Assembly (NCBI GenBank): GCA_036726225.1
Contig: DAIMCS010000003.1
Coordinates: forward strand, 73,769-137,768
DNA: 64,000 bases
Direction: 5' to 3'
Source of the DNA: Patescibacteria group bacterium
Lineage (GTDB): Bacteria > Patescibacteriota > Doudnabacteria > UBA920
The translations under genes were made by a program, and so were the position numbers. Every line of letters starts with the position of its first letter. Positions within the stretch are counted from its first letter, which is position 1. Shown here piece after piece: positions 52,704 to 54,767 of this stretch. The notes below the pieces were generated by a model. The model was given only the letters and a program-made list of their open reading frames with translations. It was not told the origin of the DNA and did no database searches.

Positions 52704-54767
52704 TTATATGTCCAAGTTCTTCACCGCTTTAGCGTGGGTGGTGATAAAGCGCTTTCTTGGGGCTACTTCGTCGCCCATCAAAACTTCAAAAATTTCACTC
52801 ACCTTTTCAGCATCTTTAATGTTAACCTGGAGCATAACCCGGTTTTCGGGATCCATTGTCGTTTCCCAAAGCTGGCTTGGGTTCATTTCCCCCAAACCTT
52901 TATAGCGCTGGATTGCGTACTTTACGCCGTCAATGTTGGAAGACGTTTCAATTTCATCATCAGGGCTAAGCGCTAAGGGGTTAGGGCTAAGTTCCTGGGT
53001 TTCACTTTTTTTCTTAGCCCTTAGCGCTACACCCTTAGCCCTGCTTTCTTTTGACTCTTTAATTAAATCTTTTAAAACTTCGTCACGCTCGTCGTCTGAA
53101 AAAGCGTATTGAGCAGTTTTCCCAACTTTTACCTGGTAAAGCGGCGGCTGCGCAATGTACAAATGACCATTTTTTATAATGTCCGGGAAATAGCGGTAGA
53201 ACAATGTTAAAAGCAGCGTGCGAATATGAGCGCCGTCTACGTCGGCATCGGTCATAATTATGACACGGTGATAACGCAATTTTGATATATCAAACATATC
53301 ACCCACTCCCGCACCAAAAGCAATTACCAAATTTTTAATTTCCTGGTTGCCTAACATTTTGTCCAAACGTGCGCGCTCTACGTTTAAAATTTTGCCCCGA
53401 AGCGGCAAAATTGCCTGGAAGCGGCGGTCACGCCCCTGTTTGGCGCTGCCACCGGCGCTGTCACCCTCTACAATATACAGTTCGCATTTGGCGGGGTCTG
53501 ATTCGCTGCAGTCTGCCAACTTTCCCGGCAGCGCCAAACCATCCAATACACCTTTGCGGATAACGCTGTCACGGGCAGCACGGGCCGCCAACCTGGCTTT
53601 TGCAGCTAGTATAACTTTTTCCACAATTTTTCCGGCTTCTTGAGGGTGTTCTTCTAAATAAATTTCCAAAGCTTCTCCGACAACAGTTTCCGTGGCTGTC
53701 CTAACTTCCGGATTGCCCAATTTAGCCTTGGTCTGGCCTTCAAATTGGGGGCTGGGAAGCTTTACAGAAATAATTGCCGAAAGACCCTCGCGCATGTCTT
53801 CACCGGTGAGTTTTTCACTTTCCTTAACATAGCCATTTTTCGTTGCATAGCTATTTATAACGCGGGTTAAGGCAGTTCTAAAACCTGTTACGTGCATTCC
53901 GCCTTCGGGCGTATAAACGTTGTTAGCATACGAAAGTATTCGCTCTTCGAAATCGTCTGTATATTGTATGGCAACTTCAATTGCCACATCTTCCACCTGC
54001 TTTGTCATGTATACGGGAGAAGATTTTGATTTTTTGTTACGGTTGAATTGTTTAAGATAGCTTAAAATACCGCCTTCAAAAAAATATTGGTAGGTTAAAT
54101 TCTCCGCTTCGTCTGTAATTACAAAATGCAGGCCTTTGGTTAAATAAGCCTGGCTTCGTAAATGCTCAAGGATAGTTTTAAAATTAAACTTGGTAGTTTC
54201 AAAAATGCTGGCATCGGGATAAAAAGTTATTCTGGTACCGTGCTGGATAGGTTCGTCTTTGTCCAGCTTGCCAATAACTTTTATTTGTCCTTGTGGCTTG
54301 CCAATTTTGTAAGACTGCTCATAAATTTTTCCGTCTTTAAAAACCTGGGCAACCAATTTTGTTGAAAGGGCATTAACTACGCTGGCGCCTACACCATGAA
54401 GCCCGCCGGAAACTTTATAGCCGGACGCTTCGCCGCCAAACTTACCGCCGGCATGCAAAACTGTTAAAACAGTTTCTAAACCCGATTTTTTTGTTGTCTT
54501 GTGAACGTCAACCGGAATACCGCGCCCGTTGTCTAAAACACTTATGCCGCCGTCTTCCTGCATAAGCACCCACACTTTGTCGGCATGGCCGGCCATAGCT
54601 TCGTCCACAGCGTTGTCTACAATTTCCCAAACAAGATGGTGAAGGCCCGTAACAGACGTGGAACCAATGTACATACCCGGACGTTTTCGAACCGGTTCAA
54701 GACCTTCTAAAACAGTAATGTTTTCAGATGTATACCCGCTTTTTTTTACTTTTTCTTCTTTGGCCAT
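52704..54767 (-). CDS. gyrB: DNA gyrase subunit B
   Basis: GHKL ATPase ([15 protein letters not shown]), Toprim (EGDSAGG), C-terminal [11 protein letters not shown]. Confidence 0.9.
52962..53042. mobile_element. 81-bp cargo-less copy of the four-helix-bundle cassette terminal repeats, inserted in-frame in gyrB (encodes [27 protein letters not shown])
   Basis: agggctaagcgctaaggggttagggctaag + 21-nt spacer + cttagcccttagcgctacacccttagccct; 18/18 and 25/25 nt core identity with the cassette ends at 37315 and 37714. Confidence 0.75.

Follow-up and report, generated by a model that had tools for sequence, protein, structure and literature searches.

How does the gene for an essential topoisomerase come to carry, in frame and translated, a palindromic repeat whose two halves recur as the ends of a cassette elsewhere in the same genome? 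The question is posed by 64,000 nucleotides of Doudnabacteria DNA (Patescibacteria group bacterium, GenBank assembly GCA_036726225.1, contig DAIMCS010000003.1, positions 73,769 to 137,768), a stretch that we call the window, and in particular by an 81-bp, heptamer-armed element lying within gyrB. An initial annotation, made from the letters alone, took this element for a cargo-less derivative of the cassette, akin to a MITE (miniature inverted-repeat transposable element), that had entered the gene while active in this lineage and had lengthened its product. What was observed is genuine and much too strong for a chance match, and the element is best read as a passenger that is old and leaves protein length unchanged, not as a jumping gene newly inserted.

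What, then, is the element? Positions 52962-53042 of the window read agggctaagcgctaaggggttagggctaag, 21 nt and cttagcccttagcgctacacccttagccct, exactly the letters first quoted, and form an imperfect palindrome of 30+21+30 nt. The inverted repeat measures 30-31 nt at 77% complementarity across the 21-nt spacer, and it runs one base past the element on either side (52961-53043). Inside the 687-aa open reading frame (ORF) the element is read in frame as 27 codons with zero stops, as had been claimed; the only stop-free frames of the 81 nt are that of gyrB and one on the opposite strand, and the chance of both arms being open in gyrB's frame is about 1 in 9, which is not strong evidence of anything. 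Every arm, at both of the loci described below and in every genome examined, is built from four 7-nt units followed by AG, the units being degenerate CTAAGGG-type heptamers set head-to-tail (Tandem Repeats Finder gives a period of 7 and 4.3 copies at 53013-53042). The predicted folds of the 81 nt are better than those of shuffled sequence, both as RNA (-37.2 kcal/mol, z = -4.1) and as DNA (-20.8 kcal/mol, z = -4.8). The initial annotation had proposed a check for assembly chimerism, and such an artefact is excluded, since each of 10 contigs assembled independently from ENA, JGI and Logan samples contains the exact 81 nt; in strains of the same species, sought via the adjacent GreA, no other gyrB allele was found, and the 81 nt are identical in all contigs.

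Does the element make GyrB longer? The window protein is 100% identical to ortholog P0001 and 77-89% identical to GyrB of Candidatus Doudnabacteria, and the element lies in a hypervariable linker that runs from a YAF motif to just before QRYKGLGEM. In the window this linker measures 66 aa. Among the 120 orthologs closest to the window protein, at 77-89% identity, 63-65 aa is the usual length and 116 have 56-69 aa; in the nearest sisters it ranges from 61 to 69 aa. All of these orthologs have a Lys/Ala/Ser-rich and then Glu-rich linker of low complexity, and its sequence conservation is near nil. Since the linkers are of equal length, the 27 repeat-encoded residues replace ordinary linker and add nothing, so the idea that the element adds exactly 27 codons has to be given up. 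Indeed, the alignment of orthologs, in which a 27-aa indel was sought, holds none, and the informative pair P0070/P0106, to which we return below, differs by the swap of a block. Nor does the element stand just before the conserved motif, as had been stated, since it ends 17 residues upstream.

The expected position in a surface linker is, by contrast with these claims, supported. Aligned to solved structures, the linker corresponds to residues 555-734 of Escherichia coli GyrB, where the GyrB of Gram-negative bacteria has its insertion domain, after the Toprim fold and ahead of the QRYKGLGEM tail. In an AlphaFold2 model of modest overall confidence (mean predicted local distance difference test, pLDDT, 63), the preceding helix extends to residue 585, and residues 585-606 have a pLDDT below 50 and no secondary structure; as modelled, the linker appears to be a permissive, flexible site. 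It is also a general sink for small repeats. A VAQAPGLP-type motif occurs in the same linker of P0007, P0009, P0010, P0012, P0030, P0058, P0065, P0100, P0108 and P0112, spread over no fewer than five clades of the GyrB tree, and in P0012 (L176 10001-12073) it is encoded by the hairpin GCAGGCC-CCC-GGCCTGC, whose stem is 7 bp and whose loop is 3 nt. In addition, the gyrB linker of P0080 (L177 7485-7558) holds a 37-nt tandem duplication read in two frames, as SFAKATEGRQKS and LLRQGYGGQAKV, for a linker of 82 aa, and those of P0068 and P0095 contain KNLKIKNSKLK. The 8-mer TGTAGCGC occurs both in the element and in the linker of P0012, which we put down to chance.

The second locus, some 15 kb from gyrB, is a cassette at 37315-37742, made up of an L arm, a 115-aa ORF and an R arm, between dnaB (35832-37316) and recR (37749-38354). 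The 18-mer AGGGCTAAGCGCTAAGGG of the gyrB element is found again, exact, at 37315, and this core, with up to three mismatches allowed, has five matches against 0.01 expected. The reported identities of 18/18 and 25/25 between the exact cores of the gyrB arms and the cassette ends are borne out, and over whole arms the figures are 26/30 (L) and 29/30 (R); the earlier view of the gyrB segment as a cargo-less relative of the cassette's inverted-repeat ends is thus supported. The cargo itself is a four-helix-bundle protein of the kind encoded in intervening sequences (IVSs) of 23S rRNA (Pfam PF05635, E = 1.5e-33; NCBIfam TIGR02436, E = 2.9e-32), with weak similarity to the protein Avd of diversity-generating retroelements. 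This longer relative of the element, the only one seen, encodes a PF05635/TIGR02436 protein in the place of a transposase, of which it has none. In predicted RNA, by both minimum free energy and centroid folds, the cassette arms pair as the outermost helix with the ORF inside, the arm duplex having an energy of -33.9 kcal/mol in the window and of -39 to -42 kcal/mol in the related loci L173 and L170.

Cargo homologs of 83-89% identity occupy the same dnaB-recR spacer in L170, L173 and L174, where arms of the same four-heptamer design enclose the PF05635 ORF; from this synteny and shared design it follows that the cassette is conserved and vertically inherited, and that it has not recently moved. 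Neither locus shows a target-site duplication: the flanks of the cassette (ATTT/AGGG...CCCT/AGAA) and the plus-strand flanks of the gyrB element (CATC/AGGG...CCCT/GCTT) are both without a direct repeat. There is no rRNA in the 64-kb window by Rfam, and the cassette lies in the dnaB-recR spacer, not in 23S helix 25 or 45. The cassette is old and IVS-like. Beyond gyrB and this cassette, no further copies of the arms were found in the window and about 70 kb of related sequence (some 130 kb of Doudnabacteria DNA), and no other gene in the window carries the element. As a separate observation, close homologs of the cargo protein (P0123-P0240) are mostly on contigs shorter than about 1.5 kb, as would be expected if assemblies broke at the flanking repeat arms.

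How old, then, is the gyrB copy? The same element is present at the DNA level in three more GyrB alleles, P0047, P0070 and P0069. The window, P0047 and P0070 share the 5' junction .../AGGG (A[GA]GG), the 21-nt loop, the 3' junction CCCT/GATGATGAA, the frame and the orientation. In P0069 the 5' arm is the same and the loop is 21 nt, and of the 3' arm just the initial 9 nt are left; its sequence is what a P0047-like copy would give after losing 24 nt in frame. A GyrB tree inferred from sequences with a masked linker puts the carriers at three places. The window gyrB stands among element-free sisters that are 92-93% identical to it outside the linker, P0069 is alone among element-free neighbours, and the third place is the trio (P0047,(P0070,P0106)), in which P0070 has the element and P0106 does not, at 99.7% identity outside the linker. 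The DNA of this last pair has near-identical flanks with a wholly different block of about 85-115 nt between them, and the difference is the replacement of an allelic patch, not an excision. The P0106 block (L004 11715-11757) opens with (CAAGAAA)x5 heptamers in the register of the element's 5' arm and has no complementary arm.

The arms and the loop of these copies have fared very differently. Between the window and P0069, gyrB is 71.8% identical in nucleotides outside the linker and 42.7% at third positions; the 5' arm matches at 29/30, the 9 remaining nt of the 3' arm at 9/9 and third positions in the arms at 13/13 (P = 1.6e-5), against 13/21 in the loop. Between the window and P0047 (72.2% outside the linker, 43.9% at third positions), the arms match at 26/30 and 26/30 and their third positions at 16/20 (P = 0.0011), against 11/21 in the loop. 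The loop of the window matches each of P0069, P0047 and P0070 at 11-13 of 21 positions, and its third positions (4/7 with P0069, 2/7 with P0047) are at background level. A recent transfer would leave the loops identical, and because these have diverged where the arms have not, such a transfer is unlikely; the comparison indicates that the element is old and that its arms have been held constant at the nucleotide level. Two of the copies are decaying, with a predicted hairpin of -37 kcal/mol in the window and P0047, -23 kcal/mol in P0070 (a 3-nt indel and substitutions) and -22 kcal/mol in P0069 (the outer 3' arm deleted).

These results also settle what the element can be said to date. Junctions, loop length, frame and orientation are the same in distant alleles, and the loops have diverged, so the claim that the insertion dates the element as active within this lineage does not stand. 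The initial annotation had itself named a contrary possibility, namely that distant orthologs share the segment and that the cassette ends derive from gyrB. Part of this is what we see: the segment recurs in three distant orthologs, and in the R arm of the window cassette the heptamers stand in gyrB-type order (x, AGGGTGT, AGCGCTA, AGGGCTA), which is not the order found in the cassette R arms of L170 and L173. The unit order of that R arm points to an exchange between gyrB and the cassette.

The explanation that we favour, with a confidence a little above the balance point, is that the gyrB linker harbours the ancient, ORF-less stem of an IVS-like cassette, length-neutral, with arms kept uniform and with patchy loss. 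We infer a single ancient entry into gyrB, which would have come about by ectopic recombination or gene conversion and not by cut-and-paste transposition. The landing site would have been the disordered, Lys/Glu-rich linker specific to Doudnabacteria, at the point where E. coli GyrB has its 170-aa insertion domain, and about the same length of ordinary linker would have been displaced, leaving the length of the protein unchanged. The newcomer may have been tolerated, as effectively neutral to the protein, in that its sole stop-free reading would give a basic, Ala-rich and then Ser/Pro/Leu peptide in a flexible loop. Thereafter the arms would have stayed near-constant, most likely by gene conversion with the functionally constrained arms of the cassette and possibly by constraint on the hairpin, and the loop would have drifted; a copy without such refreshment would decay. 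Loss in most lineages would have followed from homologous recombination that swapped short linker patches between alleles, of which P0070/P0106 would be an instance. Gene conversion is favoured as the homogeniser since the gyrB arms of the window are all but identical to those of its own cassette and the cassette R arm has the gyrB-type order.

Several points weigh against this account. With carriers making up just 4 of 120 orthologs, a single origin needs many losses or some lateral exchange of alleles, and concerted evolution is seen for one genome only, in the gyrB-cassette pair of the window. The direction of the later exchange, from gyrB to the cassette R arm, is read from three comparator cassettes. 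The part of the genome covered is 64 kb, and a larger dispersed family elsewhere would favour a mobile element. Moreover, selection on the hairpin would explain the nucleotide-level conservation of the arms equally well.

This last point leads to the alternative that survives best, which we nevertheless regard as unlikely: that the hairpin is a selected cis-element in gyrB mRNA or DNA, either an RNase III site or a site for the four-helix-bundle protein, which would couple gyrase expression to the cassette. Such a function concerns how the element is maintained and is therefore compatible with the origin proposed above. It would account for synonymous sites in the arms being conserved well above background (the 13/13 and 16/20 given above) next to a drifting loop, and for the fact that the paired stems are the conserved parts, one change in P0047 yielding a G-U pair; in addition, IVS stems of this gene family are cut by RNase III (PMC4990558), and PF05635 is distantly related to Avd, a nucleic-acid-associated protein. 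The decay of the P0070 and P0069 copies, two of the four, makes strong selection on the hairpin unlikely, however, and 116 of 120 orthologs manage without the element, the near-identical P0070/P0106 pair differs in its presence, and no true compensatory double changes are seen. On general grounds, too, its 21-nt loop and its large internal loops render the hairpin poor as a cruciform and less than ideal as a substrate for RNase III. A bolder form of the idea, to which we give still less credence, has the heptamer hairpin as an RNase III site or a site for the four-helix-bundle pentamer shared with the cassette and kept by selection on synonymous sites, IVSs being in general heptamer-armed stem cassettes that occur in mRNAs and even ORFs across bacterial phyla as well as in rRNA.

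The reading of the initial annotation, that a cargo-less, MITE-like derivative of the cassette was recently inserted in frame in this lineage alone and added 27 residues to GyrB, now seems improbable. It has in its favour that the gyrB arms are near-identical to the cassette ends within one genome, that the closest sisters, P0002-P0006, are without the element, and that in-frame palindromic elements are known in Rickettsia (PMC10969869). Linker length, the tree and the comparison of arms with loops have largely refuted it, for there is no net gain in length, and distant lineages share the junctions and the loop length with loops that have diverged. The label MITE-like fares no better, given the lack of a target-site duplication, a partner or 'parent' cassette that lacks a transposase and whose position is syntenic in relatives, and just two kinds of locus, with no more copies, in about 130 kb. 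Slightly more doubtful again are three independent, homing-like insertions, specific for the same gyrB codon, in separate lineages. The patchy distribution on the GyrB tree would suit them, as would the other hairpins and repeats in the same linker of other lineages, yet the copies share a 21-nt loop that starts with AAAAA and ends with GAA, and a flanking GATGATGAA that element-free sisters lack, which argues for one origin; no homing enzyme accompanies the element, and P0070/P0106 does not show a precise 81-bp deletion. Finally, chance convergence by heptamer slippage in a Lys-rich linker, or an assembly chimera, is scarcely credible: heptamer arrays are indeed frequent, in these genomes as in many phyla, and P0106 has another one, (CAAGAAA)x5, at the same place, but the exact 25/25 match includes non-consensus units, 0.01 matches were expected, and the 10 of 10 independent contigs refute a chimera.

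Where does the element belong among repeats more generally? It is one case of a general repeat style, and among its relatives the four-helix-bundle cassette's stem stands closest to it. At least 120 genomes contain (CTAAGGG)n / (CCCTTAG)n arrays that are perfect or nearly so, and their phyla include Acidobacteriota, Proteobacteria, Bacteroidota, Cyanobacteria and Firmicutes. In 31 of 120 such loci (L008-L127) a complementary array lies no more than 1.5 kb away, often at 3-100 nt, making a short-loop hairpin; we also note that unit variants spread within the arrays of this set. A search of genome contigs with the degenerate arm pattern proved too permissive to mark a specific subfamily, and a pattern for the subfamily core gave 36 matches in metagenome contigs, nearly all of them generic arrays of GC-rich organisms, with no more Doudnabacteria copies. 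Short-period arrays, often as inverted pairs, are likewise frequent in the intergenic DNA of Doudnabacteria loci.

The cargo family tells a similar story. A hidden Markov model of cargo homologs finds PF05635 genes flanked by, or adjacent to, inverted heptamer arrays in unrelated organisms, namely L035 (Gemmatimonadota), L078 (Desulfoluna) and, among metagenome bins, L135, L137, L138, L139 and L162 (coordinates in the table), which suggests that a cassette architecture outside rRNA is family-wide for PF05635. The array units around these genes vary, as tandem heptamers or octamers, and in L035 and L078 they include CTAAGGG/CCCTTAG. We also considered whether perfect arrays act as six-frame stop 'insulators'; this is true for CTAAGGG and fails for the other heptamer units near PF05635 genes, and it was dropped as a rule.

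Table 1. Features of the gyrB element, of the dnaB-recR cassette and of PF05635-like genes with inverted arrays
Feature	Sequence	Coordinates	Strand	Remarks
gyrB ORF, 687 aa, element host	window	52704..54767	-	Pfam HATPase_c, DNA_gyraseB, Toprim, DNA_gyraseB_C
GyrB linker, hypervariable, from YAF up to QRYKGLGEM (residues 554-619)	window	52911..53108	-	Lys-rich then Glu-rich low complexity
81-bp heptamer-armed hairpin element	window	52962..53042	-	translated as GyrB residues 576-602
Plus-strand L arm (3' arm in gyrB sense)	window	52962..52991	+	AGGGCTA AGCGCTA AGGGGTT AGGGCTA + AG
21-nt loop	window	52992..53012	+	codes KKSETQE in gyrB sense
Plus-strand R arm (5' arm in gyrB sense)	window	53013..53042	+	reverse complement AGGGCTA AGGGTGT AGCGCTA AGGGCTA AG
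Cassette L arm	window	37315..37344	+	dnaB stop codon TAG at 37314-37316
Cargo ORF, 115 aa	window	37356..37703	+	four-helix-bundle / 23S rRNA-IVS protein, PF05635, TIGR02436
Cassette R arm	window	37713..37742	+	ends 6 nt before recR ATG
PF05635-like gene with inverted arrays	L035	2380-2790
PF05635-like gene with inverted arrays	L078	2597-3106
PF05635-like gene with inverted arrays	L135	3111-3572
PF05635-like gene with inverted arrays	L137	65-547
PF05635-like genes with inverted arrays	L138	4167-4571, 7086-7463
PF05635-like gene with inverted arrays	L139	5766-6512
PF05635-like gene with inverted arrays	L162	7363-7728

The window contains other repeats that deserve a mention in their own right. 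Two adjacent heptamer arrays, (GTTACGG)x3.4 and (AACTCGC)x3.6, stand at 27098-27151 in a spacer about 700 nt from an L10 leader (27829-27993), and more arrays are found at 6893-6920 and 45606-45636. At 20498-20960, 38-nt inverted repeats surround a 135-aa GxxExxY protein (TIGR04256; ORF 20532-20939, minus strand), and these repeats consist of tandem 8-nt units, ACAAATGA / ATTTGTAT, which is the design of the four-helix-bundle cassette with different units. Another pair of inverted repeats, 35 nt long and 86% complementary, encloses at 24894-25524 a 177-aa ORF (24938-25471) that has weak PaaX-like and Cas2-like matches and, at its 3' end, a perfect 44-nt palindrome (25481-25524). The longest inverted repeat of the window (42091-42583) has 40-nt arms, 78% complementary and 413 nt apart, and lies within a 553-aa ORF (41005-42666, minus strand).

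Why should any of this matter? In a lineage of the Candidate Phyla Radiation (CPR), an essential topoisomerase contains a translated palindromic repeat, something previously documented mainly for the Rickettsia palindromic elements (RPEs), and the repeat is tied to the stem of an IVS-type cassette, not to a transposon. In the open-access literature we found no reports of such elements in CPR proteins, nor of PF05635 genes being generally embedded in inverted heptamer arrays outside rRNA; the occurrence of these genes amid such arrays in several phyla bears on the nature of IVSs and on their means of spreading. Arms and loop contrast, and a pair near-identical outside the linker shows a clean linker swap, which together make this a tractable case for weighing gene conversion against structural selection in dispersed repeats, and if the hairpin were a functional cis-element after all, gyrase expression would be tied to an IVS-type element. 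At a practical level, the GyrB linker of Doudnabacteria is prone to recombination and accepts repeats, and its naive use in phylogeny or primer design is inadvisable.

How does the element compare with systems that are already known? In E. coli GyrB, exactly the same insertion point holds a folded and functionally important domain of about 170 aa; here, by contrast, there is a low-complexity linker of about 40 aa, 27 of them repeat-encoded. The structure of the E. coli insertion domain was reportedly described by Schoeffler et al. in 2010 (PDB 3NUH). With bacterial MITEs the element has in common its small size, terminal inverted repeats, the lack of coding capacity of its own and a longer, ORF-carrying relative; it differs in having neither a target-site duplication nor a transposase-bearing parent, in its low copy number and in replacing a segment of the same length.

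Tandem heptanucleotide repeats form another class, to which the STRR (short tandemly repeated repetitive) sequences of cyanobacteria belong. Others are the TAACTGA repeats of Beggiatoaceae (PMC4679880) and the heptanucleotide repeat families of Geobacter (PMC2700814). The arms of the element, as runs of four degenerate heptamers, are of this kind; the literature, however, mostly deals with direct repeats in spacers, whereas here the arrays come as inverted pairs that make a hairpin, one of which is translated.

Closer still are the IVSs of 23S rRNA in Leptospira and Coxiella. In Coxiella, an S23p ORF lies in a terminal inverted-repeat stem that is cut by RNase III, and tandem heptamers whose number varies between strains stand beside the ORF (PMC4990558). 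The dnaB-recR cassette, with PF05635 in the loop of a long stem and tandem heptamers by the ORF, has the same build, and the gyrB copy is the cassette stem without its ORF, much like the ORF-less IVSs of other bacteria. The setting is different, namely the spacer of an mRNA operon and a protein-coding gene in the place of 23S helix 25 or 45, and by analogy an RNase III excision at the element would cut the gyrB message.

The closest known phenomenon, finally, is the in-frame Rickettsia palindromic element. RPEs (Ogata et al. 2000; reviewed in PMC10969869) are repeats of about 150 bp that form multi-copy families and lie in frame within dozens of unrelated protein-coding genes, where they add residues relative to orthologs. 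The gyrB element is like them in being a short palindromic repeat that is translated within a housekeeping protein, at a permissive surface site and with the frame kept. It is unlike them in being seen at two loci only (in the roughly 130 kb covered) and with no gain in length, in having arms made of tandem heptamers, and in having for its partner an IVS-like cassette.

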